Below, in pieces: positions 1,806-51,729 of a DNA stretch of 64,000 nucleotides. Source of the DNA: a virus; the IMG/VR virus record IMGVR_UViG_3300018481_000004, positions 1 through 64,000 of that record; one strand, written 5' to 3'. A program made the position numbers and the translations under genes. Position 1 is the first letter of the stretch, and each line of letters opens with the position of its first letter. The notes beneath the pieces were generated by a model. It was not told the DNA's origin and searched no databases. It worked only from the letters and a program-made list of their open reading frames with translations.

Positions 1806-3096
1806 GAAACATATGCACCAAGTCCATGCCTGTTACCAAGCCGGCACTCACGTCATTACCCACAGCGAACGTGGAGTACAAAGGCGTTGCAATAGACCAC
1901 GCACTTGAATCCGCCGGTATGACTTGAGATGTCCAACCGCCATTTGGCCATCTACGCCATGCCACGCCAATGCTATCCGGCGGATTCGAATCAGACGTCC
2001 TCCCCATGTGTATTACAAAGTCATACACAACATACGCAAGGTCTTTGTAGTTCAAAGGTTCAACCAACGCAGTCACGACAGCCTTGGTTCCATTCGTCTG
2101 GATGAAACTCAGCGCGTTTGCATTTGACGCCTGAACGAACCCGATCATTGCGCCATACCCTGTATACAAGGCAGTCGTATAGAACGAGCCGCTTGGAAGA
2201 GCTGCGGCTGCTGCCAAGCCAAAAAACAACCGACTTCTGTTCTGCAGACCTGGAAACGCCAACCGAAAAGACGACACAAACGGACACGGAAACTTTTTGA
2301 CAGATGCTACGGTCTGACCCATATACACAGGTCCCATGTTGTCTCGTACAATGCTCAAGGTTGGCGCCGCTGGAACAGCATAGTGAATCCTGCAACTGCG
2401 CTCAAAATCTGGGTTGCTAGGACTCGATACACTCACAGCCTGCGTCACTGCCGTCGCCGTACCTCCGGTGACGGCATTCCCCATACCGTCAAGCAGCGGC
2501 ACATTCGTGCCCCACTGCGCCTGCCATTTGCGCGTTCTATTTGTCCAAGACCTTGGCGCAAATAGCTCACCCGCAAACTTACCGTACACGGAGCTCTGCA
2601 ACTCAATGCCAAGAACCGAACGGCCCGCCACACTGGACAAGGACATGCCTGACGTCGCAGGCATGAGCGTAGCGTCAACTACCCCACTTGCCCCTAGCAG
2701 CGGCACTTTTCCGGCATCGGCCGCGCCCACGCTCGTCAACGTGCCAGCACCAAGTGAGCTCAATTTCACATGATCCGCTGCAGACATAAACCCATTGACA
2801 GCAGCGGTGGCACCTGCATGCATGGCTGGATCGCTCTGCACCCCATGCGCGTGCACGTGATCATCTCGTGCAAGCGTCGGATTGCTTCCTGCGCTTGATA
2901 CGGCGCTCAGCGCTGCCGGAGCGACAGTTGCGAGCGCTGCGCCTTCAGCCTGCCAAGACGTTCCGCTCCAGAAGAGTTCACGATTCTCAACCGTCGACCA
3001 GACGACCACGCCCACAATGCCAGGGTTGGGCGCCGTAGCCCCCTCGGCAATCGCCAGCGCAGGGGGTGCCTCGAAGCCGTACGCCCGCGTCGTCAC
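1789..3096 (-). CDS. Tail-fibre / receptor-binding protein paralog
   Basis: The track ORF 1789..3534 has an Arg-rich N-terminal extension overlapping 3093..4211. A GTG at 3096 overlaps the upstream stop (GTGA) and gives VTTRAYGFEAPPALAIAEGATAPNPG, matching the paralogs. The C-terminus ends MFLEHEG. Confidence 0.75.
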   Translation of the reverse strand: MTTRAYGFEAPPALAIAEGATAPNPGIVGVVVWSTVENRELFWSGTSWQAEGAALATVAPAALSAVSSAGSNPTLARDDHVHAHGVQSDPAMHAGATAAVNGFMSAADHVKLSSLGAGTLTSVGAADAGKVPLLGASGVVDATLMPATSGMSLSSVAGRSVLGIELQSSVYGKFAGELFAPRSWTNRTRKWQAQWGTNVPLLDGMGNAVTGGTATAVTQAVSVSSPSNPDFERSCRIHYAVPAAPTLSIVRDNMGPVYMGQTVASVKKFPCPFVSSFRLAFPGLQNRSRLFFGLAAAAALPSGSFYTTALYTGYGAMIGFVQASNANALSFIQTNGTKAVVTALVEPLNYKDLAYVVYDFVIHMGRTSDSNPPDSIGVAWRRWPNGGWTSQVIPADSSAWSIATPLYSTFAVGNDVSAGLVTGMDLVHMFLEHEG

Positions 3097-4211
3097 GCGT
3101 GAATCACGACGCGAAACTGCCCTGCCGTCGGGGCGACGGCGAACCCGAGCGTCATGACGTTGACCGAGCTCCGCACCTTGTCGCAACCGATCTCCGCACC
3201 GCTCGAGACCTCGAACACGCCCACGGTTACGTCGAGTGTGCCCAAGTTGTGCGTGATCGCGATGGACGTCGCGCCCCCGCCGACGTCCTGGGCAAACTTG
3301 CGCACCACGACCGCGGTGTCGATCCCGATCACGTTGCCACCGAGCGTGACGCCGGCACCATTCGTGTACGAGACTCCCGCCCCGATCTGCGCCCACGTGA
3401 TCGGCGTCGTGCCGACAGCGATGGCCCCGTCCGTGGTGATCCTCCACTGCGTGTCCGCCAGCGATCCTTCTTCCACGAAGACGGCTGCGTCGGCCGACAG
3501 CATGCCCACGTCCGCGTCGGCCGCGCGCGTCCACGCGCCCGCTCCCGCCACGTAGATGCCATTGGCCTGGGGTGAGGACTGCAGACGGACGAGGACCCGA
3601 TCGAATGCAACCAGCGTGACGCCGTCGACAACTTGCAGACCGCTGAGCGCGGCCAGGTTGTCGGTCGTGGCCACGCGGACGCTCGGCTTCCAGTCGGTTC
3701 CGTTGATCGCGTTTAAAAGCTGTCCGTAGGTGCAGCCGTCGGTCGCGACCGTCCCGTTGCCGACGTTGGTCAGCTTCTGTCCGTTCAACGAAACTGGCCC
3801 TGTCGGACTCGCCAACTGGTCGAGGCGCATCGTCGAGAACCCCGACTGCACCGCATCCAGCTGCGCCTTGTTGATCGCGTCTGTGCCGTTCACGCCCGGT
3901 GTGAGGTTGACGATCTTGTGATCGCCTAGATCCAGGCTGGTTGCGGGCGTTGCCAGCTGATCGAGCCTCGACGTGCGGACCTGCGCATCGAAGTCCGAGA
4001 TGGTGGCAGCGAGCTGCGACCCGAGGTGGTTCGCGCGCGCGGTGGGGTCGATGGTTCCCGAAGTGCCCCTGAACTCCAAGCGGCCCGAGACCGAGTTGAA
4101 CCAGAACTGTCCCGGCGTCGGCGACCCCGGCTGGCCCGCGATCACATGCGCGCGTGCGTTGAGGATCTCGAGCCCCGTCATGTCGATCGGTGTCTGCTGT
4201 TTGAACGCCAT
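3093..4211 (-). CDS. Tail fibre protein (372 aa), a short version of the 1536-aa fibre
   Basis: The N-terminus (TGLEILNARAH, GQFWFNS, LEFRG) and C-terminus (NGIYVAGAGAWTRAADAD, ITHNLG..) match the two ends of the 4608..9218 product. KIVNLTPGVNGTDAINKAQLD is a typical phage fibre collar motif. Confidence 0.85.
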   Translation of the reverse strand: MAFKQQTPIDMTGLEILNARAHVIAGQPGSPTPGQFWFNSVSGRLEFRGTSGTIDPTARANHLGSQLAATISDFDAQVRTSRLDQLATPATSLDLGDHKIVNLTPGVNGTDAINKAQLDAVQSGFSTMRLDQLASPTGPVSLNGQKLTNVGNGTVATDGCTYGQLLNAINGTDWKPSVRVATTDNLAALSGLQVVDGVTLVAFDRVLVRLQSSPQANGIYVAGAGAWTRAADADVGMLSADAAVFVEEGSLADTQWRITTDGAIAVGTTPITWAQIGAGVSYTNGAGVTLGGNVIGIDTAVVVRKFAQDVGGGATSIAITHNLGTLDVTVGVFEVSSGAEIGCDKVRSSVNVMTLGFAVAPTAGQFRVVIHA

Positions 4212-4607: not shown

Positions 4608-7600
4608 TCACCCCACCACGACGCAGCGGAGCTGGTTGGCGGCCGGCGGGGCGGCGAAGCCGAGCGCGAGCGTGTTGAGCCCTGAGCGCTGGATGTCGCA
4701 CTCCACCTCGCTCCCGTCCGCGGCGAAGTACACCGAGACCGCCACGTCGCGCGAACCAAGGTTGTGCGTGATCGTAAAAGTTCTCGCGGCGCCGTTTCCA
4801 AAAGCAGCCGCGAACTTCCTCGGCACATTGGCCTGGAGCGAGAACGCGTTGCCCGTCAGATCGAGCCCTGCGCCTGCGACGTAGCTGACGGCTGCGCCGA
4901 TCTGCGTCCACACAAGCGGCGTGGTGCCGACTGTGATTGCGTCATTGGAGATCAGCCGCCACTGTGAGTCGCCGAATGTGGAGCCTTCCTCCACCATGAC
5001 GGCAGATGCGGCCGAGAGCGTGCCCTGGTCTGCGTCCGCTGCGCGCGTCCACGGTCCTGCGGACACGACGTAGATGCCGTTGAGAACTGGATCCAGCTGC
5101 TCGGTCAACAAGGCGCGATTGCCTTCGGCCAAGGCGACATTGTCTAGCGTCTGCAAACCGGAGAGGACGGGCACGTCCGCGGTCGACTTCGCACGCACGC
5201 TGACTTTCCAATCGGTTCCATTGGTCAGGTTCTCGACGTGTCCGAGGGTCACTGCATCGGACGGCGCAGTCGGCGCAGCCAGATTCGTGATGCGCTGTCC
5301 GCCAAGGTCCACAGGCGCAATAGCGGTCGGCACCTTGTCCAACGTCACCGCGCCGCTCGCCGCCGCGATGGCGTTGAGCTGCGCCATCGTTGCGGCGTCC
5401 GTGTCGGCGACGCCCGGCAAGACATTGACAAGCTTGTGCGTGCCAATGCTCAGGTCCGCTGTCGGCGCAGCGAAGTCACTCAGGCTGTTGTCGGCGACAC
5501 CGGCGACAGCCGTGTCGGTGTACGCGCGATCGGCGGTGCTAAGACCGTCTGCGTACGTCCGCTCGGCGGCGTCTTGCGTGTCGACGTACGCCTTGAGCGT
5601 TGCGTCCTGTGTGTCCGCGTAGGCCTTGTTGCTCGCAGTTTCGAACTGGAGCATCGCGTAGTTGACAGCATCTTCATCATCCACCGCGCCAGCCAGGCCG
5701 GTGATGCGGAAGTGGTTCATGAACAGGTCGCCGACGGGCTGACCCATCGCGCTGATCGACGCGTACGTGACACTTGTCGTGTTGATGTTCCAGGTCTGCG
5801 GATCCGTCGGTTCGACCCCAGCCTCGAGCGTGTCGAGGTGCCAGATCGTGCCTCGGTTGTACCCTTTGCGGACGTAGACCTGCGAACCTGCCGCAAGCCT
5901 GTTGAGCCGAGCTTCTCTTTGCCAAACGCAGGCGTTCGGCTGCCCGAGCAGTCCATCCAAGGTCCAGACGCCGTTCTGGCGTTTGTCGTCCTGATGGGTG
6001 AGCAGGACGTACTCAGACTTCCGGTTAGGATTGACGGTGAAGTCGCCTCCCAAAAAGATCGGCGGCGGACCGATGATCACGCCGTCGATCTGGTTGGGGT
6101 TGGACGCGATGTCGATGTTCAACTTGGACTCTGCCGCAACCACGCTGATCTTCGCGAGCGAGTGGTAACTGATGTCGTCGAACTTCTCCTGGTACTTCTG
6201 CACCCAGGTTCCGCCCTCGATCAACTGCCACGTCTCGTTCACCAGCGAGACATAGAGCTGCTCCCCGAGGGCGAACTCTCGCGGAGACGCACGCGTCCAC
6301 ACGTACTGGCCACCGGTCGCCACGACATCCCAGAGGCCGTTGTCTGCGGCAACGTCCTGAGCCGTAAGCAAGACCTGCGTGCCCTCTCCCTCGGCGAAGG
6401 TCATGTAGTAGTCGCCAACGTACCGTCCAGCGGGCTGATTGATCGCCACGTTGACGGCGCCGACGAGGCCGACCACCGAGCTCGCCAGCCCGCCTCCACT
6501 GTTGCGCTTCCAGATCTGCGAATCGCCGCCCTCGACGTCCTGATCTGTCGCGAGATACCAGATCGTGTTCTTGTGCACCCCTTCGCGAACGTAGATCTGC
6601 TCGCCCTTGCGAAAGAAGTTGCGCCAATACTCACGATCCCAACGTGCCCTTAGATCGTCATGGTTGTAGTACGTGACCGCATAGATACCGTTGTCGTAGT
6701 CGTTGGGCTGCGCCGTCAACAGGACGTACGCAGGCTTGTGGCTCTGATTGTAGCTTCCATCAGGAAGCGTTTGCGCCGACAGGCTAAGCGTGACTCCGTC
6801 CACGACATCTACGTTTGCCCACCGGTCCACCGGCGTCGTAGACACCGCCTCCACACTCGTCTTGAGCAGCGCGTTCTTGCGCAGGTCCTCGAGCTGATCG
6901 AGAGGGCCTCCGTTGATTTCAACCCAGTCATCCCCGTACCAAGTGCTGACCCAGAACGTGTGCTGGCGAGATTCCCATTCGACGCCTTGGAATCCGCGAT
7001 AGACGGACTGTGCGATAACGACGCGCCCGAACTTCTCATCGATGTTGAAGTACAGCTTTTCCCACGGCTGGGCTGGGCCATACACGGGAGGGCTGGTTTG
7101 TATTACCTCGCCCTTGTGCATGATCCAAATTCCGTTTTCGGAACGATCTTGCTGATCTAACAGCAACACAAGGTCGCCTTCGTCGAAACCCTGGCCGTGA
7201 ACCTCAGACGGTGTCGGCGCCAGATCAAGGTGCGATCGGACGACGAATTTCACAGCATCTGAAAAGAGCTGCGGAAGAAGTTTGATCCACCCCGTCTTGG
7301 TAAGCTGCCAGGTCTCCGGCTTGATGCCTCCGCTCACGAACACCATCTCACCGAAGCGATCGGTCGGTATCCGCTGCATGGTGCCGCCGAGACGGTACAG
7401 TCCGTTCTCGAGCGGGTCATCCTGCCTGACCAGTAGCAGTGCTTGGCCATCTAACTCCGGCGGAATCGGCCCCTGCAGATCCCAGTTCCACGTGAAGACC
7501 CAGTTCGCCTCGTACCTGGCCAGCGACTCTTCCGCGTTTTTCCAATCGAAGATTTCGCCGTTCGGATACCCTGGACGAAACCTCATGCGCCACGTCTGCC

Positions 7601-9218
7601 CCGCGTGAAGCCCACCCTTGACGTAGACCGTGGTGCCCTCATGCCACCCCGAGTAGTCGTCGGGCATCAGGTCTAGCTTTCGCCAGGACATCACCCCCGG
7701 CGACTTGACGCCGTACTCCCAGACCTTGTTGTCGGTCGGGTCTGGCTGGTTCGTCAGCAGCACGAGCCACGACTCGGTAAGGTCGAGCAACCGCCCATCG
7801 ATCGTAGGGCGCGGATCTCCGACGAGGCTGGTGTCGACAGGTTCCAGAGAGACAAGGTCGACGGCCACCCTGTACAGGGTGCTGTCGACCATGCTGATGT
7901 TCAGCAACGACCAGGTCTGCCAGACGTTGCCATCGGTTGCAGGCGTCACATCCTGGTTGTTCTGATAGATATAGATGTCGCGACCGATGAAGACGAGATC
8001 GCCCATCTTGATCGTTTCGGAATGCGAGGCACTCCAGCGCAGCATCGGCAGGCCACCGCCCTGGTAGATGTACAGACCATCCTCCAGGCCGCCGATCTGC
8101 GTGGCGCACAACACCGTCGCACCGTCTGCCAGGCCTTGGCCGTCCCTGCCCAAATACGGAACAGTCCCCGCCAACTCCTCGGGCGTCGGCTTCCTTGTAA
8201 TGAGCTGGTGCGCTCGAATCTGGTACTTCGACAGCAGCTTGGCCGTCTCCAAGCTGATCGCCTGCGTCTGTGCTGCAGGATCACTCAGATCGGCGATGGC
8301 CGGCAGGTTCGTGATGGGCTGCCCATTCACGTCAACCGGTGCCGTCGGCGGCGCCCAGTCGCTCAAGCTGTTGTCGGTGATGCCTGCAACTGCTGTGTCC
8401 GTGTATGCCCGATCCGCAGTGCTCAGCCCATCCGCGTAGACTCGCTCGGCTGCATCCTGAGTATCGATGTACGCGCGATCTGAGGCCGTGCTCGCGTTGA
8501 CTTGAGCCACCGTGGCAACGTCCGAGTCATTCACGCCCGGAGCGACGTTCGTCAACTTGAAACCGCCGATGTCCAAGTCGGCTGTTGGCGGCGAAAAGTC
8601 ACTCAGACTGTTGTCGGCGACACCGGCGACAGCCGTGTCCGTGTACGCGCGGTCGGCGACGCTGAGGCCATCTGCGTAGGCCTTATCTGCCACGCTGTTT
8701 GCAGCATCCTGCGTGTCGACGTACGCCTTGAGCGTTGCGTCCTGCGTGTCCGCGTACGCTCGGTCGGCAGTGCTCAACCCGTCCGCGTACGCCTGGTCTG
8801 CCACGCTGTTCGCAGCATCTTGCGCGTCGATGTACGCGCGATCCGATGCGGTGCTGGCGTTGACTTGTCCGACAGTAGCGACGTCTGAGTCAGCCACGCC
8901 AGGCGCGGCGTTCGTCAACTTGAATCCGCCGATGTCCAGATCGTTCGCCGGCACCGCGAGCGTGTTGAGCGGGTAGGCCTTGACGACGGCCTCGAGGTCG
9001 CTGATGGTGCTCGCCGCCTGCGTTCCGAAATGGGTCGCTCGATCTGTCGAGTCGATGTTTGCGTCGTCAAGTCCACGAAACATGAACTTGCCAAGAATGG
9101 GATCGAACCAGAACCTGCCCGGCTGCGCAGAAACTGGAGGCGTGTCGAGGCTTTCAGCCCTGACATCCTGTATCTCGCTACCGAGCAGGTTGAGATCTGT
9201 GGCAATTATCTTGGCCAT
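4608..9218 (-). CDS. Giant tail fibre / spike protein (1536 aa)
   Basis: AYADTQDATLKAYVDTQDAA-type repeats occur near both ends. There are collar motifs FKLTNVAPGVxDSDVATVxQVN and about 8 modules of LLTxQxDxxxNG(I/V/L)(W/Y). The C-terminus has NGIYVVSAGPWTRAADAD and ITHNLG. Confidence 0.9.
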   Translation of the reverse strand: MAKIIATDLNLLGSEIQDVRAESLDTPPVSAQPGRFWFDPILGKFMFRGLDDANIDSTDRATHFGTQAASTISDLEAVVKAYPLNTLAVPANDLDIGGFKLTNAAPGVADSDVATVGQVNASTASDRAYIDAQDAANSVADQAYADGLSTADRAYADTQDATLKAYVDTQDAANSVADKAYADGLSVADRAYTDTAVAGVADNSLSDFSPPTADLDIGGFKLTNVAPGVNDSDVATVAQVNASTASDRAYIDTQDAAERVYADGLSTADRAYTDTAVAGITDNSLSDWAPPTAPVDVNGQPITNLPAIADLSDPAAQTQAISLETAKLLSKYQIRAHQLITRKPTPEELAGTVPYLGRDGQGLADGATVLCATQIGGLEDGLYIYQGGGLPMLRWSASHSETIKMGDLVFIGRDIYIYQNNQDVTPATDGNVWQTWSLLNISMVDSTLYRVAVDLVSLEPVDTSLVGDPRPTIDGRLLDLTESWLVLLTNQPDPTDNKVWEYGVKSPGVMSWRKLDLMPDDYSGWHEGTTVYVKGGLHAGQTWRMRFRPGYPNGEIFDWKNAEESLARYEANWVFTWNWDLQGPIPPELDGQALLLVRQDDPLENGLYRLGGTMQRIPTDRFGEMVFVSGGIKPETWQLTKTGWIKLLPQLFSDAVKFVVRSHLDLAPTPSEVHGQGFDEGDLVLLLDQQDRSENGIWIMHKGEVIQTSPPVYGPAQPWEKLYFNIDEKFGRVVIAQSVYRGFQGVEWESRQHTFWVSTWYGDDWVEINGGPLDQLEDLRKNALLKTSVEAVSTTPVDRWANVDVVDGVTLSLSAQTLPDGSYNQSHKPAYVLLTAQPNDYDNGIYAVTYYNHDDLRARWDREYWRNFFRKGEQIYVREGVHKNTIWYLATDQDVEGGDSQIWKRNSGGGLASSVVGLVGAVNVAINQPAGRYVGDYYMTFAEGEGTQVLLTAQDVAADNGLWDVVATGGQYVWTRASPREFALGEQLYVSLVNETWQLIEGGTWVQKYQEKFDDISYHSLAKISVVAAESKLNIDIASNPNQIDGVIIGPPPIFLGGDFTVNPNRKSEYVLLTHQDDKRQNGVWTLDGLLGQPNACVWQREARLNRLAAGSQVYVRKGYNRGTIWHLDTLEAGVEPTDPQTWNINTTSVTYASISAMGQPVGDLFMNHFRITGLAGAVDDEDAVNYAMLQFETASNKAYADTQDATLKAYVDTQDAAERTYADGLSTADRAYTDTAVAGVADNSLSDFAAPTADLSIGTHKLVNVLPGVADTDAATMAQLNAIAAASGAVTLDKVPTAIAPVDLGGQRITNLAAPTAPSDAVTLGHVENLTNGTDWKVSVRAKSTADVPVLSGLQTLDNVALAEGNRALLTEQLDPVLNGIYVVSAGPWTRAADADQGTLSAASAVMVEEGSTFGDSQWRLISNDAITVGTTPLVWTQIGAAVSYVAGAGLDLTGNAFSLQANVPRKFAAAFGNGAARTFTITHNLGSRDVAVSVYFAADGSEVECDIQRSGLNTLALGFAAPPAANQLRCVVVG

Positions 9219-22678: not shown

Positions 22679-23590
22679 TCACGCTCCTCTGCGCTCACCG
22701 TGCATGGACTTGAGAATGTCCGAGTCGTCGAGCGCCAGGTAATGCCGGAAGGTCGTCTGCAGATTCTTGTGCCCTGCGATGCGCGCGATAATCGTCGCGT
22801 CTACACCGCGCCGCCACAAGGTTACGAGGTACGTTCTACGCATCGTGTGCGGTGAGAAATCCATGCCAAGCGGATCGCAGAGCTTGCTCAGCATCTCCCG
22901 CAACGTACGATCGGCGATGTGTTTATTGCGTCCCGGAACCTTGGGGAACAGCCACGGTCCCTTCTGCCAGCGACGCCACGTGTGGAAGTAGTAGTTGAGG
23001 ATCGGACGCCCCTCATCGAGGACGGGCACGATCCGCTCGTCACCTCCCTTGCCGATCAGCTTGAGCACGATCGTGTCGCGCACCGTGCCACCACGCAGCG
23101 TCACCTCGCGACGACTCAACGAGCTCATACTGAGCCCCGCAATCTCGCTTCCACGCAAGCCCACACACGGCATTAGCTGCACCGCGGTACGGTACGGCTC
23201 CTGCAGCATTTGGTTGGCGAGATCCATGTACCGAACGAGAAACTCCGGCGGCAGGATGTCTCGCATGCGGTGCTGCACGCGCGGAAGATCGGGCGGGTAG
23301 GGAACGACCACGTTGGCGCCCTGCTCGCGGACCCAGCGCAGGTAGCGTTTGACCGCGGCGATATAGAGGTGCGTGGTCGGCGCCGCGAACCCCTCCCCGC
23401 TCATGCTCGAGGCGTATCTCGAGAGGATGTTCGGCGGGACGTCCTCGAGGTTGGAAATGCCCCACTCGCGGAGCTGGGCGAGGAACAGGCGCGTCACAGC
23501 CGCGTATTTCCCTGCAGTCCCAGACGCCCGCACCCCCGTAAGGTACGCCTCGAACCCCTCCACAGATGTGTCGTGCGCAGTTTCTGCCAT
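22679..23590 (-). CDS. Tyrosine recombinase, XerC/XerD-like
   Basis: GLRGSEI (Arg), GKGGDERIVP (Lys), HTMRRT (HxxR) and GHKNLQTTFRHY (His..Tyr). ATG at 23590; the track start at 23599 is TTG. Confidence 0.85.
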   Translation of the reverse strand: MAETAHDTSVEGFEAYLTGVRASGTAGKYAAVTRLFLAQLREWGISNLEDVPPNILSRYASSMSGEGFAAPTTHLYIAAVKRYLRWVREQGANVVVPYPPDLPRVQHRMRDILPPEFLVRYMDLANQMLQEPYRTAVQLMPCVGLRGSEIAGLSMSSLSRREVTLRGGTVRDTIVLKLIGKGGDERIVPVLDEGRPILNYYFHTWRRWQKGPWLFPKVPGRNKHIADRTLREMLSKLCDPLGMDFSPHTMRRTYLVTLWRRGVDATIIARIAGHKNLQTTFRHYLALDDSDILKSMHGERRGA

Positions 23591-23617
23591 GGGAAACAAG
23601 CAGAGTGTAGGCGAGTC

Positions 23618-27815: not shown

Positions 27816-28334
27816 ATGCAGCAGTCGGGCAACAAGACGATTCGACAGCTCACAGCAGCCGACCGAAACAAGCTCTTCGGCAAGTTCGCGTTCGAGCCTG
27901 CACCCACCAAAGACAGTCCCGAGCGCATCAAAGTCACCGACTCCTGGGCGCGCGACAACCTGGTCAAGGTGGAGATGCCCTGGCCCATCGTTGCAGGCGT
28001 CAAGACGGCCTGGTTTCATGTGAAGGTCGCGGACCGCTTTCTCGAGCTGCTCAACGAGTGGCAGGCCAAAGAGGTCGCCGCCGACATCCTCACCTGGAAC
28101 GGCAGCTACGCAGCGCGCTTCATCCGTGGCAGCACGACCAGCCTGTCTGCGCACGCCTGGGGGTCTGCGTTCGACATCAACGTGCCGTGGAACCGGCTCA
28201 ACCACCCCGCTGCACTCGAAGGCATGCGGGGTTCGGTGATGCGCCTCGTGCCGATCGCAGAACGTCACGGTTGGGTGTGGGGCGGACGTTTCGCACGCTG
28301 CGATGGGCAGCACTTCGAGGTCGGCAAGCTCTAG
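27816..28334 (+). CDS. Peptidase M15 (VanY / L-Ala-D-Glu peptidase-like), probable endolysin
   Basis: SAHAWGSAFDIN (H-x6-D) and DGQHFE (third zinc ligand) are the M15 zinc-peptidase signature. Confidence 0.8.
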   Translation: MQQSGNKTIRQLTAADRNKLFGKFAFEPAPTKDSPERIKVTDSWARDNLVKVEMPWPIVAGVKTAWFHVKVADRFLELLNEWQAKEVAADILTWNGSYAARFIRGSTTSLSAHAWGSAFDINVPWNRLNHPAALEGMRGSVMRLVPIAERHGWVWGGRFARCDGQHFEVGKL

Positions 28335-28978
28335 TCGGAGAGGAAGCCGTAGAGCGAGATCGGTCCGCCGTCCACGCTGTCGATGTCGATCTCAATGCGT
28401 CCCGGACCAAACAGTGGCATGCGATCAAAGACCTGCACGAAGCCGTTGTCAGGCTGGGCGGACCCGAGATTCGGTCCTTCGAACCTAAGGGCAAGAACGT
28501 CCGCAGGCTCGTCGGGCGCGAACCGCAGTGTGCACTTGCTTGAGACATCTGGCGAGTGGAGGAACAACGACAGGTTCACGGATGACTCGATGCGGCAGAC
28601 GCGGGCCGTGCCTTTTTCTTCGAACACCTGTGTTGCGAGGGGAATGAAGAAGGTGGGCTCGTCTGGTCCTTCGAGCTCCAAGTGGCCTGTGAACGTTGTC
28701 GAAAAAACAAGCGGAAAGGCGTTGAGCAGAACGGCGACGGGTCCACGCACGGGCAAGCGTTCGAACACAGGCTCGAAGGGAACGCTGGGGAAAGTGATGA
28801 TCGGACCGTCATCTCGATCATCGACAATGCGAATGCTCTTCGTCCCCGTGCTGCGACCGTGGTGCCGTAACGTCAGGAAGTAGAGAATGTCCTCGGTCCC
28901 TTCGACTGCGTTTCGTAGATCGAGGACGGGTCGAAAGGTGCTCAGCGAAAAACCATAGGTCTGCAACGGGATGCGCAT
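28331..28978 (-). CDS. Orphan paralog A of a three-gene family
   Basis: 215 aa. Shares LRF(Y/E), P(M/L)(R/F)GPGRIE and a C-terminal YG(F/T) motif with 28994..29668 and 29665..30372. Its stop overlaps the convergent M15 gene stop. Confidence 0.65.
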   Translation of the reverse strand: MRIPLQTYGFSLSTFRPVLDLRNAVEGTEDILYFLTLRHHGRSTGTKSIRIVDDRDDGPIITFPSVPFEPVFERLPVRGPVAVLLNAFPLVFSTTFTGHLELEGPDEPTFFIPLATQVFEEKGTARVCRIESSVNLSLFLHSPDVSSKCTLRFAPDEPADVLALRFEGPNLGSAQPDNGFVQVFDRMPLFGPGRIEIDIDSVDGGPISLYGFLSD

Positions 28979-28993
28979 CGGATGGTCTTCCTT

Positions 28994-29668
28994 TCAGCGT
29001 CGAATGACGGTGCCGTACGCGAAGGACGTGCACTGATCTGTGCCCGTCCAAGCTGCTTCGATGCGGCCCGGTCCACGCATCGGGACGCCGTCGAGCACGG
29101 GGTATGCGACCTGCGGTCCGCGAACGACGAGCGATGCGTACGTGTCTGTGGTGTCGTAAAAGCGCAGTTCGATCTGCTGCTCCACAACCTCCTCAACGGC
29201 ATCGGTCATGTCCACGATCAGGCTTACTTCGTGAACTTCCTCGGTCAGAACGTGGAGGGTCTCGATCGCCTCTGTACGCAGCTCACCCTCGGCATCCTCG
29301 GACAGGAGCACACCGCGTGGGTTCGATGCGAAGAATGCGCTCGGTGTTTGCGCACGAAGGCCCGGCTCCAGCTCGGACCACCCAAAGCAGTGAACAGAGG
29401 GTGCAGTGGTGACGCGCAACGCGGAACCCGGCAGAAGAGGCAGGCGGCGCAGCACCGTGAACGGTCCACCGCTTGGCAAGTCGATGGAAAGTAGGGGGGT
29501 AACCTCCTCTCCTTCCAGGGCGAGTGCCAGGTTTGCCGGGGCCTCCTCATTGTTCACGGCGATCAACGTGATGTAGCGAGGAAGAACGTCTTGGCTTGCA
29601 TTTCGCAGATCCTGCACGAGACGCGAACCTGAAAACGGATGACCGTTGTCCGTCAGCAGCATCTTCAT
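28994..29668 (-). CDS. Orphan paralog B of a three-gene family
   Basis: 224 aa with ELRFYD..VPMRGPGRIEAAW..YGTVIRR. The N-terminal DLRNA motif is shared with paralog A. Confidence 0.65.
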   Translation of the reverse strand: MKMLLTDNGHPFSGSRLVQDLRNASQDVLPRYITLIAVNNEEAPANLALALEGEEVTPLLSIDLPSGGPFTVLRRLPLLPGSALRVTTAPSVHCFGWSELEPGLRAQTPSAFFASNPRGVLLSEDAEGELRTEAIETLHVLTEEVHEVSLIVDMTDAVEEVVEQQIELRFYDTTDTYASLVVRGPQVAYPVLDGVPMRGPGRIEAAWTGTDQCTSFAYGTVIRR

Positions 29669-30372
29669 CGGAGCACCGTCCCAAGCACGAGGGCCATCTT
29701 GTCATCGTCTCCGCCGGTCGCCACGACGGTGATACGCCCTGGCCCGCGCATTGGATGTCGATCGAGCAAGAGACCGCGCACAGGCTTGTTCACATCCTTG
29801 TACGACGTCGCGACTGTCTCGAAGAGAGCCTGGCCGTTCTGGTAGCGCCCATCGTAAAACCGCAGCTCGACATCGAGAGCTGGTTTCAGCACGACGAGCT
29901 GCAACGAGACGAGATCGACATAATCATCGGCGAGCCGATGGACTTCAGTCTCTGGATCCCCGACACCGATGCTCAACAAGGGCGTCAAAAAAGGCGCCAT
30001 GGGTTTCTGTGTAATGAACGGCCGATCTGGAACACGCACGTCCACGTCGTCAATTTCGACGTGACCCCATGCGCGATACATCGGAAAAGGACGAGAGGAC
30101 GAGACGCTGACCGAGTTGCCTTCGCCGGAGATGGGGTAGTCGAGCAGCAGCGTTTGGGGTGCATACTGATTGGGGACGACACTCACGCTGCCGAGCTCAT
30201 ACGTCTTGACGCCCGCGATGGTCACGGTTCGCCGCACGTCGAGCCGGTCGGACTCCTCGCTGTCGATGGTTCGCGCAAACATCGACACGCGAAAGAGGGT
30301 GTCGCCGGCACCCTTCGGGACTTGGAAGTGTAGCGAGGTGGACGGGAATCCTCGTCCGATAGGCATGCGCAT
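29665..30372 (-). CDS. Orphan paralog C of a three-gene family
   Basis: 235 aa with ELRFYD..HPMRGPGRITVVA..LGTVLR. ATGA overlap with paralog B. The GAGTTTGAGAAGG and TGAAACTCAGAGG boxes lie upstream. Confidence 0.65.
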   Translation of the reverse strand: MRMPIGRGFPSTSLHFQVPKGAGDTLFRVSMFARTIDSEESDRLDVRRTVTIAGVKTYELGSVSVVPNQYAPQTLLLDYPISGEGNSVSVSSSRPFPMYRAWGHVEIDDVDVRVPDRPFITQKPMAPFLTPLLSIGVGDPETEVHRLADDYVDLVSLQLVVLKPALDVELRFYDGRYQNGQALFETVATSYKDVNKPVRGLLLDRHPMRGPGRITVVATGGDDDKMALVLGTVLR

Positions 30373-30449
30373 ATTGTGCGACCTCTGAGTTTCAAAACGA
30401 TACGCGGGCTTGCTCTCGAACTCCAGATCGGATTAGCCTTCTCAAACTC

Positions 30450-30587
30450 ATGCCCAACCGCTTCTACGCCGTCTTCGGCATCTGCGTGCGCAAGGGCGGC
30501 ACGAAGAAGAAGTGCTACGTGAAAGCGATGGACGCGGTGAAGAGCAAGGCACGTCGCAAGCGACGTCGATCGCGCCGCCGCGGCTGA
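30450..30587 (+). CDS. Possible 45-aa highly basic peptide
   Basis: My translation is MPNRFYAVFGICVRKGGTKKKCYVKAMDAVKSKARRKRRRSRRRG. No clear SD, and it is below the ORF-track size cutoff. Confidence 0.25.
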   Translation: MPNRFYAVFGICVRKGGTKKKCYVKAMDAVKSKARRKRRRSRRRG

Positions 30588-31852: not shown

Positions 31853-32104
31853 ATGCGCGTCCTACTCGCACCTGAAGCCGCCCCCGACGTGGAAAACCTG
31901 CCGGTGGTGATCAAAGCGCGATTCGCGGCTGTCGTCGCACGACTCGAAGCCTGGCCCAACGTATCAGGTGCCAAACCTCTGCGCGGGGAGTGGAAAGGCC
32001 ACTACCGCATTCGCATCGGGGACTGGCGCGTGATCTTCAAGCCGGTGCGCCCTGACTTGATCGTGGTGCGCGTGGCGAATCGTCGAGACGTCTACGAGGA
32101 GTGA
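31853..32104 (+). CDS. RelE/ParE-family toxin
   Basis: 83 aa. LRGEWKGHYRIRIGDWRVIFKPVRPDLIVVRVANRRDVY is the classic RelE/ParE C-terminal pattern. Confidence 0.8.
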   Translation: MRVLLAPEAAPDVENLPVVIKARFAAVVARLEAWPNVSGAKPLRGEWKGHYRIRIGDWRVIFKPVRPDLIVVRVANRRDVYEE

Positions 32105-32472
32105 AAGCTATGCCTAAGCCCAAAGTTGCCGTTGCCGGAGCCCTTACCGTAGGCGGCGTGGACTACGTCATCATCCCAAAGACTGACTACCTGCGCATGC
32201 AGGACTCGAAGCTCGGCGTGGACGCGCAGGCGTTTGTCCAGGACTCCATTGCGAAGGACCTGCGCACGGCACGCGAGAGCGTGGGTCTAACCCAGGCTGA
32301 GCTCGCTATGCGCCTGCACAAGAGCCAGACGATGGTGAGCCAAGCGGAGTCGGGTACCACGCGCGTGTCGGAGCGATACGTCCGTAGCGCGTTGGCAGCG
32401 TGCGGGCTGCCGGATACCTGGAGCGCGAAGGATGTGCGATCGAAGAAGCGAAGCGCGCGCAAGACGGGGTGA
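32101..32472 (+). CDS. XRE-family HTH antitoxin (HigA-like gene order)
   Basis: LRTARESVGLTQAELAMRLHKSQTMVSQAESG is an XRE HTH. It overlaps the toxin stop, and the toxin-first order resembles HigBA. Confidence 0.75.
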   Translation: MKAMPKPKVAVAGALTVGGVDYVIIPKTDYLRMQDSKLGVDAQAFVQDSIAKDLRTARESVGLTQAELAMRLHKSQTMVSQAESGTTRVSERYVRSALAACGLPDTWSAKDVRSKKRSARKTG

Positions 32473-37309: not shown

Positions 37310-38686
37310 ATGGAGCAGACGGCGACGACGGTGCTGGAACGTGCGCGGGAACAACAGCAAGCTAGCTTGTCGTCGCTGCTGCCACCGCGCTCCATCGACT
37401 TCTTCTCGGACGAGCGCCATGCGGAGGCCGCCTCGCGCGTGCGCATCGTTGGCGCCGAGGACCTTTCCCCGGACCAGCGCGCAGCGTTCGAACAGATCCT
37501 CAGCTGGGCGCACCGTCCGAGCCAGCCAGTGCTCAGCCTGGGCGGCTATGCGGGCACGGGGAAGACGACACTCATGGCGGCAGTGGCTGACGTCCTGTGC
37601 CGGCAGCGGGGGCTAGCGGTCGCCTTCCTGACGCCTACTGCCAAGGCCAGCTCGGTGCTCACGCGCAAGCTCGGCAAACTGGCCTACGCCGCAACCTTTA
37701 TCGGCACGGTCCACTCGTTCATGTATGTGCCGATTCTCGACGCGAACGAAGAGCTGACAGGCTGGGGCCGCCGCTACTTCGAGCGGGTCGAGTACCCGGA
37801 CGGATCCGTCTCCTACATGGCCAAGGGCAACTCCGACGTGCCGCGGCTGAACCTGATCATCGTCGACGAGGCGTCCATGGTGAACGCGGAGATGGAGGCA
37901 GACATCCTCGCCTTCGGCATCCCCGTGCTCGCGGTCGGCGACCACGGACAGCTGCCGCCTGTGCAGGGGCAGAGCTCGTGGATGACGAGCCCGGACATCC
38001 GCCTCGAGCAGATCCATCGGCAGGCCGCCGACAACCCCATCCTCGCGCTCGCGACCTTCGTGCGCGAAGTGGGCCGCCTGCCGCCGGGCGTCGAGGACTT
38101 CGGCATCCCGTACTTCCACAGCCTCAAGGCAATGGAGAACGGCCTTCGTGACGCGTACGTGCGCCGGGGCTTGCACGAGGTCGCCATGATCACCTACACC
38201 AACCGGCTGCGCGCGCAGCTCAACCTCGCGGTGCACCAGGAGCTGCAGCACGCGGACGACCCGTGCAAGGGCACGCAGGTCATCTGCTTGAAGAACGACC
38301 GGCCCATGATCAACGGGATGCGCGGCGTGGTCGTGTCGGACGTCGAGCACAAACACATCTGGTGCGTGGGACGCGTCGAGTTCCCGGACGAGGGCTTGAC
38401 CTACCACGGGCCGTTTTTGCGCAAGCAGTTCGGGCTCGCCAAGGTTCCCAAGAACTTGGACGTCGCCTCAGAGCTGCTCGGCCGCAAGGTCGAAAAGCTT
38501 GAACACCTCGGAGTCTTGCTCGACTACGGGTATGCGCTGACGTGCCACAAGGCGCAGGGCTCGCAGTTTCAAGAGGTCTTCGTCGTCCTCGAGGGAGGCC
38601 GTCGACCGCCCGACTACGCGCGCTGGCTCTACACCGCGATCACCCGCGCGAGCGAGCAGCTGTCCTTCTGCGAGACGTGGAGCTGA
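37310..38686 (+). CDS. RecD/Dda-like SF1 DNA helicase
   Basis: GGYAGTGKTTLM (Walker A), LIIVDEASMV (Walker B), VGDHGQLPPV, QIHRQ and YALTCHKAQGSQF. Confidence 0.85.
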   Translation: MEQTATTVLERAREQQQASLSSLLPPRSIDFFSDERHAEAASRVRIVGAEDLSPDQRAAFEQILSWAHRPSQPVLSLGGYAGTGKTTLMAAVADVLCRQRGLAVAFLTPTAKASSVLTRKLGKLAYAATFIGTVHSFMYVPILDANEELTGWGRRYFERVEYPDGSVSYMAKGNSDVPRLNLIIVDEASMVNAEMEADILAFGIPVLAVGDHGQLPPVQGQSSWMTSPDIRLEQIHRQAADNPILALATFVREVGRLPPGVEDFGIPYFHSLKAMENGLRDAYVRRGLHEVAMITYTNRLRAQLNLAVHQELQHADDPCKGTQVICLKNDRPMINGMRGVVVSDVEHKHIWCVGRVEFPDEGLTYHGPFLRKQFGLAKVPKNLDVASELLGRKVEKLEHLGVLLDYGYALTCHKAQGSQFQEVFVVLEGGRRPPDYARWLYTAITRASEQLSFCETWS

Positions 38687-39392: not shown

Positions 39393-39576
39393 CCCCTATC
39401 CGTTTGGGCTTTTCCTTCTTCGCGTGCATCGAACCGGTGCGACCGCTGCGACCCTTGTGTACGGGACCGGCGCTGCGCCCGTGACGTTGGATTGCGCGCC
39501 ATTTTCGTCGCGTTTTGCGCTGGTGGCGAACACGTGCCGGCTTGGCCATGGGAAAGAGCCTACCCCACGAGGCGCG

Positions 39577-39676
39577 AGTTTGAGTAGGAGAGGCCCCGTT
39601 CTTAAACTCAAACTCGGCTGGCAAGTCAACGCAATCTGCAAGGTTTTGTCCCGTTGGCGTGCAGGGGGATGCAGAG
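39577..39676 (+). promoter_or_regulatory. Inverted AGTTTGAGT / AAACTCAAACTC boxes plus CAGGGGGATGCAGAG
   Basis: 39577-39585 and 39604-39615 form an inverted repeat. CAGGGGGATGC lies at 39662. All sit in a 320-bp intergenic region. Confidence 0.35.
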
Positions 39677-44734: not shown

Positions 44735-45045
44735 AGTTCGAAGATTCCAAGTTCGGCGACGAAGTCGACGACGAGCCTTCGCCCAAGACGCTGGCGATGA
44801 TGGAGCTGCAGCGCTCCTACTTTCGAGCGGTGATCGGACCGCTCGTATCGAAGGCGTCTGGTCCCGCCGGAGGCATGACCCAGGAGGCACGCGAACACGT
44901 CTGCGAGCAAGCATGGGAGCTCGCGGAGGTGGCAATGCAATGGGACCGCGCCGCATTGGACCACCTTCTTGATCTCGAGGAAGCCGAAGCGGAGCGCCGG
45001 TTGAAAGCCGGGTGGAAGGCTTCCCCCGTTCATGACGGGGCGTAG
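44731..45045 (+). CDS. Hypothetical acidic protein
   Basis: ATG at 44731 overlaps the upstream stop (ATGA). 104 aa. Confidence 0.55.
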   Translation: MKFEDSKFGDEVDDEPSPKTLAMMELQRSYFRAVIGPLVSKASGPAGGMTQEAREHVCEQAWELAEVAMQWDRAALDHLLDLEEAEAERRLKAGWKASPVHDGA

Positions 45046-45113
45046 AGGGCGCGGACTGGGTCCGGCAGAGACTCCAAATCTCCGCTCGCAAGGTTCGATC
45101 CCTTGGCGCCCTG
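45046..45113 (+). tRNA. tRNA-Trp(CCA)-like element with a truncated D-arm
   Basis: Acceptor AGGGCGC/GCGCCCT is a perfect 7 bp with an A1-T72 pair and discriminator G. The anticodon loop is CTCCAAA. The T-arm is CAAGG-TTCGATC-CCTTG. Only 14 nt (GGACTGGGTCCGGC) occupy the D-arm position. A T-run lies at 45119-45124. Confidence 0.45.
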
Positions 45114-45309
45114 CAACGTTTTTTCGTGGGGTCTTTGCTGTGATCTGTTCGAACTCCGCGGAGAGCAGCGAAGTCCGTCTACTTCGCGCCGGCCGAAGCC
45201 CACGAACGCCGGCAACTTTTCACGAGGGGGAACGAGAGGGTTGCGCGTCACCGGGGGGTAGCGCGCTGACGCTGGGAAAGACCAGGGGCGCCCCGCCGCC
45301 TCTAGCGCG

Positions 45310-50023: not shown

Positions 50024-50591
50024 GGGTTATCCACGCCTACGCGCTTTGCCGCCCCCAGTTGTCTACCCTCTCGACGCATGGGTAAAGATCGACGAAGCGG
50101 CGGCCTACATACGAAAAACTCCTGCCGCTCTGCGGATGGCGATCATGCGCAAGCGTATTGCGCCTGACGGTCGCGCTGCGAACGGAGCCGCCATGTTCAA
50201 GGTTGCGACTCTGGATGCATATCTGCGTGCAGGAACCTGCTATACAACGCGACACCATGTGGCGCCCTGGGAAGAGGATGAGCATGGAAAAGGCAGAGAA
50301 GAAGGCACCAAGAAGGAAAGGCAAGGCCACCCGCTTCCCGGGGATCAAGATGCTGGGAGGAGGCAGAGCCTCCATCCGCATCTACTACGTAAACCCGAAA
50401 AACAAACTGAGAGAGGAAGCGTTCTTCATCCGAGACGGGATTCAGAACGCACAGCAAGCGAACGAGTTGAAGGAGAGACTTCGCAAAGAGATTCTGGCGA
50501 AGCTCGAAAGCACTCCAGGCGAAATGCCGCGCTTGTCCACCTACGTGGAATCTTGGCTGCTGGACAAACAGAAGGTAAGCGCAGACGGTAA
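50022..50591 (+). CDS. Excisionase-like (MerR/Xis-type HTH) protein; 3-prime extent uncertain
   Basis: The N-terminal WVKIDEAAAYIRKTPAALRMAIMRKRIAPDGRAANGAAMFKVATLDAYL fits Xis-type HTH domains. The frame stays open about 300 nt into int, and that part looks non-coding. Confidence 0.4.
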   Translation: MGYPRLRALPPPVVYPLDAWVKIDEAAAYIRKTPAALRMAIMRKRIAPDGRAANGAAMFKVATLDAYLRAGTCYTTRHHVAPWEEDEHGKGREEGTKKERQGHPLPGDQDAGRRQSLHPHLLRKPEKQTERGSVLHPRRDSERTASERVEGETSQRDSGEARKHSRRNAALVHLRGILAAGQTEGKRRR

Positions 50592-51729
50592 GAAAAAGCC
50601 GCTCTCACCCAGCACCTTGGATCGCTACACAAGGACGTTAGCCCACTTCGTTCTCGACAAGCCGATCGGGAAGATGTTTCTCGATAAGATTACGAAGGCA
50701 GATGTGGAAGAGTGGAGAGACGATCAAAACGATGATTCAGCAGTCACGATCAACACGCGTCTTCGCCTTCTGAAGACGCTGTTGGCCGACGGGGCTGCTG
50801 ATTACGTGATTGCGGCGGGGAGTCCTGCTGCGCGCGTTCAGTTCCTCGCAGAGAAGAAGAAGTACACGCGCGAGAATCCGAACGCGTTGACGGCGTCCGA
50901 GCGTCGAGCGTTGCTCGATGGCGCGAAGGCGGTTCAACCCAAGTGGCACATCTTGATTCTCGTGCTTGCAACCACGGGCATGCGGATTGGTGAGGCCACT
51001 GCACTGCGCTGGGATGACGTGCTCTGGCCTGATCCGGAGAACGGCGAGCCAGGACGCATCCTCGTGCAACATGGCCAATATCGGGGTGTCCTGAAGGATC
51101 CCAAGACCGAAGGTTCTGTTCGTGATTGCTACGTGGGACCAGAGCACGAACTGTGGACTGCTTTGCGTCATCACCGTCGCTTCCTCGGAACCTGGACGCT
51201 GCACGCCAACCAGCGTGATGCGATTCTGGCGAAGAAGACGCCGCACGAGGTCAAGGCGCTCCAGGAGCACTATCGAGAGCTGGGCTGGGTCTTCCCGAAC
51301 AGCAAAGAGGGGAAGGACGCTCCAATCTTTACCTCGGTGCTGCGCAAGCCCTTGAAGCAGATCCTCGATTACCTGGAAGGGCTGGGAGAGGGGGTCACCA
51401 GTATCAACGTGCACGGGTTGCGACGAACCGTGAACACGTTGATGGACGGTGTCGTGTCTCCCGCGCAGCAGCGCCAGCAGATGGGGCACACGCAGCCGGC
51501 GACCAACCTTCTCTATGTCGCGCAGGTCGACGAGAAGCGCGTCGAAGCAAGCCGCGCGCTCGACGAATACATCCGCATCCAGGAGCAGAAGACTCTGCCG
51601 AAAAAGGCGGGACAAACGCCGGGACGCGCACCGGGACGCGCGACCCTATCAAGGGAGAGTGCGCAAGCGCACGCGCCAAGTGCACGGAAGCGTATCGTTT
51701 CCATGCAAACGGAAGAAGAGGTCGCCTGA
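50284..51729 (+). CDS. int: Tyrosine integrase
   Basis: TTGMRIGEATALRWDDV (Arg), HGLRRTVNT (HxxR) and MGHTQPATNLLYV (His..Tyr). ATG at 50284 follows GAAGAGGA. Adjacent to attP. Confidence 0.85.
   Translation: MEKAEKKAPRRKGKATRFPGIKMLGGGRASIRIYYVNPKNKLREEAFFIRDGIQNAQQANELKERLRKEILAKLESTPGEMPRLSTYVESWLLDKQKVSADGKKKPLSPSTLDRYTRTLAHFVLDKPIGKMFLDKITKADVEEWRDDQNDDSAVTINTRLRLLKTLLADGAADYVIAAGSPAARVQFLAEKKKYTRENPNALTASERRALLDGAKAVQPKWHILILVLATTGMRIGEATALRWDDVLWPDPENGEPGRILVQHGQYRGVLKDPKTEGSVRDCYVGPEHELWTALRHHRRFLGTWTLHANQRDAILAKKTPHEVKALQEHYRELGWVFPNSKEGKDAPIFTSVLRKPLKQILDYLEGLGEGVTSINVHGLRRTVNTLMDGVVSPAQQRQQMGHTQPATNLLYVAQVDEKRVEASRALDEYIRIQEQKTLPKKAGQTPGRAPGRATLSRESAQAHAPSARKRIVSMQTEEEVA

Follow-up and report, generated by a model that had tools for sequence, protein, structure and literature searches.

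A conserved three-gene operon encoding paralogous proteins of two predicted beta-sandwich domains in an uncultured temperate-phage lineage

We analyzed three consecutive minus-strand genes that lie between positions 28331 and 30372 of a 64,000-nucleotide stretch of viral DNA (positions 1 to 64,000 of IMG/VR record IMGVR_UViG_3300018481_000004; hereafter the window). Judged from their sequences, the three products are true full-length, ancient paralogs with a fixed gene order, and they belong to a rare and previously undescribed protein family. Structure prediction indicates with confidence that each protein of this family is made of two all-beta sandwich domains connected by a linker some 35 residues long. 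The most likely arrangement of the products is a non-enzymatic hetero-oligomer that acts by binding and contains six homologous beta-sandwich domains. The genes are carried by a novel, undescribed and uncultured lineage of temperate phages, in which the trio is a core operon.

Gene 1 (29665-30372, minus strand; clade g1) is the first gene of the operon and encodes 235 amino acids (aa) that begin with MRMPIGRGFP and end with LGTVLR; its ribosome-binding site (RBS), AGAGG, is at 30382-30386. Gene 2 (28994-29668, minus strand; clade g2) encodes 224 aa running from MKMLLTDNGHPFSG to YGTVIRR, and gene 3 (28331-28978, minus strand; clade g3) encodes 215 aa running from MRIPLQTYGFSL to YGFLSD. The original prediction had described three tightly coupled genes, and both junctions were found as it gave them: the stop codon of gene 1 and the start codon of gene 2 overlap in ATGA at 29665-29668, and genes 2 and 3 are separated by 15 nt (28979-28993), a gap that holds the gene 3 RBS AAGGAAG. 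The GC content by codon position of all three open reading frames (ORFs) follows the pattern of real coding sequence. The proteins are acidic, with isoelectric points (pI) of 5.8, 4.6 and 4.8 for genes 1, 2 and 3, respectively, and, as had been predicted, no transmembrane segment, hydrophobic segment or signal peptide was detected in any of the three.

All of the motifs on which the relationship of the three genes had been proposed are present, namely PMRGPGRI(T/E) or PLFGPGRIE, LRF, a C-terminal (Y/L)G(T/F)(V/L) and, in genes 2 and 3, DLRNA. Two details of their description required correction, since gene 3 reads TLRFA instead of (L/E)LRF(Y/E) and the spacing from LRF to GPG is about 26-42 aa rather than 25-30. 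The paralogy itself is supported by three comparisons that all agree. Pairwise BLASTP among the three proteins gave E values of 2e-7, 8e-4 and 4e-3. Hidden Markov models (HMMs) built from single clades picked exactly the other two genes among the 503 ORFs of the window, and clade-versus-clade alignments by hhalign had probabilities of 98.6-99.9% across 190-230 columns, which is near full length.

When 1.84 billion cluster representatives were searched exhaustively with HMMs, only 46 members were recovered, with lengths of 210-360 aa. Among the members checked, annotation never went beyond 'hypothetical protein'. There was no significant match to Pfam, PHROGs, NCBIfam or PADLOC for the three proteins or for further family members; the PHROGs search covered all 44 members, and PADLOC, a library of anti-phage defense systems, returned 0 matches at E values up to 1 for six family members. 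A profile search of the sequences in the PDB gave noise only. The earlier statement that the proteins belong to no known family is thus upheld by every one of these searches. In a neighbor-joining tree, three clades correspond to the three gene positions, with g1 orthologs always first in the trio, and the clades differ in their C-termini (YGxVxR in g1, YGTxVRR in g2 and YGFxS[DS] in g3). Members of a fourth clade occur as a single copy wherever their context was readable.

Relatives of the window, referred to here by L numbers, were recovered by exact-sequence and profile searches of metagenomic contigs. Complete trios of identical order and synteny are present in L001/L002, L005, L006/L007, L008 and L009, while the L003 contig ends just after gene 2, where its successor begins, and L010 holds genes 1 and 2. 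The ordered trio with the same synteny was therefore seen in at least six independent relatives and in all related contigs that were readable. The gene calls for L001, L003, L005, L006, L008 and L009 show the same 4-nt overlap of genes 1 and 2, as do the ORFs listed for L010, and the gap between genes 2 and 3 is 2-16 nt in all trios. Single-copy members were found in L014/L017, L013 and L016; of these, L014/L017 shares with the trio lineage a backbone of an integrase, a 743-aa protein and a transglutaminase-like protein. Since the same ordered and syntenic trio recurs across relatives and sister phages keep a single copy, we consider the trio a core operon of the lineage. The genes had been described as an orphan cassette in an accessory island, and neither term is tenable in light of this distribution.

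The ratio of nonsynonymous to synonymous substitutions (dN/dS) among close orthologs is 0.09-0.16, with values of 0.13-0.16 for gene 1 and 0.11 for gene 3, which indicates purifying selection. At the same time, the trio diverges faster than almost all of its neighbors: its identity to the window is 74-78% in L001, where the neighbors show 83-93%, and about 33-43% in L005, where the neighbors show 51-70%.

The structure of the gene 2 product was modeled with AlphaFold2 (AF2). With an alignment of 13 sequences the model was poor, with a predicted local distance difference test (pLDDT) value of 63; with 44 sequences, pLDDT rose to 89.2 and the predicted template modeling score was 0.85. The confident model is compact, with 15 strands and zero helices, in keeping with the earlier view that the proteins are beta-rich. 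In this model, domain 1 comprises residues ~2-99 (nt 29372-29665, minus strand) and domain 2 residues ~135-223 (nt 29000-29266, minus strand). Between them is a linker of residues ~100-134 (nt 29267-29371, minus strand), which is predicted at lower confidence and has conserved Pro and Phe positions. When the family alignment was halved, the two halves matched each other by hhalign (96.9%, E 1.5e-10, 76 columns), and from this match we conclude that every one of the proteins is internally duplicated. The two halves have the pattern VTL ... L(D)RxPxRGp ... YG in common, and a 32-nt DNA repeat at the motif, with a spacing of ~330 nt (repeat family D1), mirrors the domain duplication. The duplicated unit is a predicted beta-sandwich domain of ~95 residues, and the ~35-residue linker between the copies is Pro-rich and partly conserved. 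As there are three internally duplicated proteins, the trio would encode six homologous beta-sandwich domains. The internal duplication and the wider family are additions to what the original prediction had noticed.

Gly and Pro account for nearly all invariant residues of the family; one Glu is near-invariant, and these positions form no recognizable catalytic pattern. Several more specific ideas were considered and rejected. A PCNA-like heterotrimeric sliding clamp, with its two-domain subunits of beta-alpha-beta-beta-beta topology and helices lining the ring, does not fit a model without any helix. An enzyme like peptidylglycine monooxygenase (PHM) is not supported either, as matches to PHM have template modeling scores (TM-scores) of 0.26-0.42 and the family has no invariant copper-binding His or Met. 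Domain fusions offered no functional clue, because the longer members (282-360 aa) carry insertions inside domain 1 rather than added domains. Two genes next to the single copy in L014 were examined as possible extra diverged paralogs and gave an hhalign probability of 0.1%.

Translational coupling suggests roughly similar levels of production for the three proteins. Taken together, the coupling, the Gly and Pro invariants and the missing catalytic pattern make a non-enzymatic hetero-oligomer most likely. The evolutionary picture is clear: a domain was duplicated, the gene was then triplicated and the gene order became frozen, which is the pattern expected of an obligate heteromer. A homo-oligomer would take the same role in the single-copy sister lineage.

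Paralogous beta-sandwich units encoded side by side are also known from picornavirus VP1-3, double jelly-roll capsomers and C1q A/B/C, although we draw these parallels as analogies only. By the logic of pseudo-hexameric rings, three two-domain subunits would supply six related domains. The trio differs from capsid-type assemblies in that no capsid protein is among the best structural matches and that tail-fibre-like genes are present. Double jelly-roll capsid proteins were absent from the 50 listed PDB matches of the confident model, and companions such as a penton or an FtsK-type ATPase were not searched for; with the weaker model, the triple jelly-roll turret protein of an archaeal virus (4ind) appeared at rank 27. 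We attach a low probability to a novel type of phage assembly in which the trio would be a heterotrimer or higher hetero-oligomer, with its six domains in a pseudo-symmetric ring functionally distinct from capsid, tail and clamp rings. Such a ring could be an egress or envelope factor of the XepA type or a binding platform for the basic miniprotein described below, with a homo-oligomer as its counterpart in sister phages.

In Foldseek searches of the PDB, both the weaker and the confident model retrieved XepA of the Bacillus prophage PBSX (6i56) first, with E values of 1e-5 and 9e-6 and a probability of 1.00. No confident match to a well-known family was obtained, and XepA, at the level of fold, was the only consistent structural match. 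XepA is a pentameric dumbbell whose protomers each have two 4+4 antiparallel beta-sandwiches and, between them, a connector of 30 residues (PMC6834076). It has no transmembrane domain; export takes place while the prophage develops, and mature particles do not contain the protein (PMC6834076). Its gene is part of a lysis cassette and the protein is cytotoxic to Bacillus by a mechanism that is unresolved (PMC6834076); no newer functional work on XepA was found in the literature. Like XepA and its one-domain relative YomS of SPbeta (6i5o), the family is phage-encoded, with proteins of ~220-280 aa and genes near those for peptidoglycan hydrolases. It shares with XepA the lack of a transmembrane segment, signal peptide and catalytic site and, in the predicted structure, two similar 4+4 antiparallel beta-sandwiches with a linker of ~30-35 residues.

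Two observations underlie a role at the envelope, namely that XepA is the top structural match and that family members are adjacent to two different M15_4 paralogs in two lineages. Here, the complex would be XepA-like, an oligomer of tandem beta-sandwiches that is made in the cytoplasm and acts at the cell envelope around lysis or egress. Itself no enzyme, it would bind membrane or wall and work with the adjacent M15 peptidoglycan peptidase. This XepA-like, envelope- or lysis-associated role is our leading guess, a tentative one made by analogy, and it is the weakest step of the argument.

The adjacent peptidase gene (27816-28334, plus strand) encodes 172 aa of a VanY-like M15_4 protein (Pfam PF13539, E 4e-14) with intact SxHxxGxAxD and DxxH motifs and no signal sequence. 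It is convergent with the trio, and its stop codon and that of gene 3 share the palindrome CTAG at 28331-28334, an overlap that had been noticed before. M15_4 holds the same position in L001, L005, L008 and L009; the trio abuts it in the window, L001, L005 and L008, and in L009 a single 61-aa gene lies between. In L016, an NCBI metagenome assembly, the single member follows a 2-transmembrane protein, and a different M15_4 paralog with an N-terminal hydrophobic segment is encoded 1.8 kb downstream of the member on the same strand. The idea that a 177-aa protein of L016 is a SleB-type hydrolase found no support in Pfam and was rejected. In the same genome as the window and to its left, a second M15_4 with a hydrophobic N-terminus and an SLT-type transglycosylase are encoded downstream of fibre-like genes (L012:18422-18934, minus strand, and L012:19287-19793, plus strand). 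These two are stronger candidates for the true lysis enzymes than is the M15_4 at 27816-28334, which has no signal sequence.

Several observations weigh against the XepA-like role. The Foldseek alignment with XepA spans both domains over ~262 columns, but with 12-14% identity and a global TM-score of ~0.30, and the next PDB matches are generic tandem beta-sandwich or carbohydrate-binding module (CBM)-like proteins, including PHM, the CBM22 tandem, SGBP-B, vicilins and neuropilin b1b2. The low TM-score is attributable to the difference between the compact family model and XepA, an extended homopentameric dumbbell. By hhalign, the profile of 44 family sequences matched XepA, in a sequence identical to 6i56, with a probability of 0.2%, and neither XepA nor YomS was found in the profile search of PDB sequences at E values up to 10. 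The likeness to XepA is thus one of architecture and not demonstrable homology, and the mechanism of XepA itself offers little to build on. The trio is not co-transcribed with M15_4, and this peptidase has no export signal of its own. The likelier lysis genes, for SLT and the second M15_4, are far off and beyond the window, and no peptidoglycan hydrolase adjoins the family in the L014 and L006 lineages. Where XepA is encoded by a single gene in a late holin-endolysin cassette of a Bacillus prophage, the present family has three diverged paralogs in a coupled operon that converges on a peptidase gene, in a metagenomic lineage of high GC content (62% in the window). No holin was identified; in L016, the 2-transmembrane protein, the family member and M15_4 are co-oriented.

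One alternative is that the trio is a virion-associated accessory set, such as decoration or cement proteins or a fibre or baseplate adhesin built of CBM-like or jelly-roll beta-sandwiches; it could then be a pseudo-hexameric heterotrimer that binds glycans on the host surface. Tandem beta-sandwich proteins of phages are mostly structural. With the weaker model, BFVD returned cyanophage tail-fibre-like and uncharacterized virion structural proteins at TM-scores up to 0.5, and the PDB matches include tandem CBM22, SGBP-B and HA70. Moreover, the gene for YomS adjoins tail genes, the trio outpaces its neighbors in divergence as receptor-binding parts do, and the L016 member follows homologs of two genes from the presumed structural block of the window. 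The resemblance to tandem CBMs (CBM22-1/CBM22-2 of Xyn10C and SGBP-B; Foldseek E 1e-4 to 1e-3) is one of tandem beta-sandwich shape; the family differs in TM-scores of 0.2-0.3, no sequence signal, no secretion signal and no conserved aromatic binding platform evident among its invariant columns. Position speaks against a virion component, as the trio is its own small operon running opposite to its neighbors and >5 kb from the minus-strand block of fibre-like genes, and the L014 member is located among non-structural genes, namely a homolog of the 202-aa gene of the window, NUDIX and the basic miniprotein. None of the 44 members has a structural PHROG match, and double jelly-roll capsid proteins do not rank high in the structure searches. 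We regard a virion role as unlikely.

As to the structural genes themselves, most of those presumed in the window have no PHROG or Pfam match. The products of two minus-strand genes, a 372-aa protein (3093-4211) and a 1536-aa protein (4608-9218), have in common a C-terminal domain of ~250 aa that matches PHROGs for head decoration, tail fibre and virion structural proteins with E values down to 5e-100. Further fibre-like genes continue beyond the window after this pair.

Gene 1 and the gene for a small basic protein are separated by a 77-bp divergent control region (30373-30449) that is conserved in close relatives. The region contains GAGTTTGAG at 30441-30449 on the minus strand and, inverted at 30387-30395 on the plus strand, a weaker copy, GAGTTTCAA; no sigma-70-like promoter was found in it. 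Two boxes upstream of the trio had been described as phage-wide. The description holds for the core of the first, GAGTTTSAG, which occurs at 13 sites in the window where 1.2 are expected, but each full 13-mer occurs only once. The second box, with 4 matches at up to 2 mismatches where 1.2 are expected, is not found phage-wide, and it consists of the weaker inverted copy of the core and the gene 1 RBS. The core sites are at 507, 23740, 24724, 26312, 30441, 33719, 39576, 39607, 48817, 54874, 57327, 59813 and 61711, with an inverted pair at 39576-39615. They are mostly intergenic, occur in both orientations and fall nearly all within the non-structural half of the window at 23.7-62 kb. The sequence is probably the binding site of a regulator, and its mostly intergenic placement in either orientation is more suggestive of an operator than of a directional promoter. 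Because the sites are almost entirely in the non-structural half, the trio could be expressed early rather than late, a further point against a part in lysis. No terminator was found between the trio and the convergent M15_4 gene. This, together with the common CTAG stops, is an argument that the two units are transcribed at different times.

These features are among those that would suit an intracellular host-interaction module, expressed early or from the prophage, that binds or sequesters a target for superinfection exclusion, anti-defense or host takeover. The trio has GAGTTTSAG in common with the regions upstream of non-structural genes, and its convergence with the M15 operon without a terminator implies a different timing. 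It is a self-contained and oppositely oriented operon between the replication genes and an auxiliary block of Dam methylase, GT2 glycosyltransferase and M15, and its faster divergence fits as well. NUDIX is a neighbor in L005, L008, L009, L006 and L014, and an Acb2/Tad1-like gene is ~6 kb from the member in L016. Counter-defense and exclusion genes are usually variable, whereas the order and content of the trio are fixed down to 33-43% identity and sister lineages have retained the family. The proteins show no PADLOC match, effector-like domain, transmembrane segment or nucleic-acid-mimic composition, and we know of no anti-defense protein with this architecture. A host-interaction module is, in our estimate, rather unlikely. 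We note that L016 encodes a GAF-GGDEF protein (L016:9405-10448) as well as the Acb2/Tad1-like gene (L016:11252-11620), the latter related to sponges acting against CBASS and Thoeris, within a few kb of the family member.

Across the control region from gene 1 is the gene for the small basic protein (30450-30587, plus strand), whose 45 aa are 40% Lys and Arg and comprise MPNRFYAVFGICVRKGGTKKKCY, with two Cys, and then an Arg-rich tail. It had no match in any library. In the window, L001, L003, L005, L008 and L009, this gene and the trio run divergently; in L014, a homolog (L014:10743-11018) is encoded just downstream of the single copy on the same strand, which is also that of NUDIX. The family proteins might be an acidic chaperone or partner of this two-Cys protein, resembling nucleoplasmin as a beta-sandwich oligomer that handles a basic, nucleic-acid-binding peptide. 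The pI values of 4.6 and 4.8 for genes 2 and 3 are compatible with this, as are the adjacency of the two families in differently arranged lineages and the presence of several similar Lys- and Arg-rich miniproteins in the genome. The case is purely positional, with the genes divergently transcribed in most genomes; gene 1, with its pI of 5.8, is only mildly acidic, and no histone chaperone was among the structural matches. We consider such a chaperone or partner function highly improbable. Additional two-Cys miniproteins rich in Lys and Arg are encoded in the same genome at L012:19795-19929, L012:20056-20451 and L012:20637-20792, and another Lys- and Arg-rich one is beside the L016 member at L016:5714-5833.

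The wider surroundings of the trio are conserved on both sides. The divergent side has the small basic protein, an RCC1-repeat lipoprotein and/or NUDIX, and then a VapE-type primase and a helicase. The convergent side has M15_4, the GT2 glycosyltransferase and the Dam methylase and, further on, an integrase, a ~740-aa protein and a transglutaminase-like protein. The island proposed earlier had included a lipoprotein and a toxin-antitoxin pair. The RCC1 lipoprotein turned out to be conserved. The pair, a ParE-like toxin and a helix-turn-helix antitoxin (31853-32472, plus strand), is the variable element of the region, since it is missing from the otherwise syntenic L001, L003 and L005. An invertible segment or shufflon was considered and dismissed, as the flanking inverted repeats are no more than short matches at chance level.

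The phage genome appears to be larger than the window. Two assemblies of 101,912 bp and 101,942 bp encode an identical protein, and an ENA contig stops ~1.4 kb upstream of gene 1 at a point past which the window continues; these observations suggest a genome of ~102 kb that is circular or circularly permuted. Among GenBank phages, megablast and tblastn gave no match to the trio region or gene 1, and the DNA polymerase has only ~26% identity to uncultured Caudoviricetes. Motif-based scans of GTDB genomes and IMG/VR with g1 and g2 profiles returned no relatives, and none was found in GTDB genomes, GenBank phages or, except for L017, IMG/VR. The window encodes a 306-aa integrase (22679-23599, minus strand), a 523-aa protein with a weak Phage_integrase match (50158-51729, plus strand) and a single transfer RNA gene, for tRNA-Trp (45037-45114, plus strand); no RNA family was found by Rfam over the entire window. 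The 458-aa helicase of the window (37310-38686) has an 829-aa ortholog in L005 (L005:383-2872) with a weak LAGLIDADG match, suggesting an intein or homing-endonuclease insertion.

In summary, the trio defines a new and confidently foldable protein family that is fixed as a core feature of an uncultured temperate-phage lineage without close relatives in GenBank phages, IMG/VR or GTDB genomes. If the analogy with XepA is true, a poorly understood class of lysis-cassette proteins would extend beyond the Firmicutes and there would be a second system for working out its function. Should the analogy fail, the family would still be a well-defined target for phage biology.

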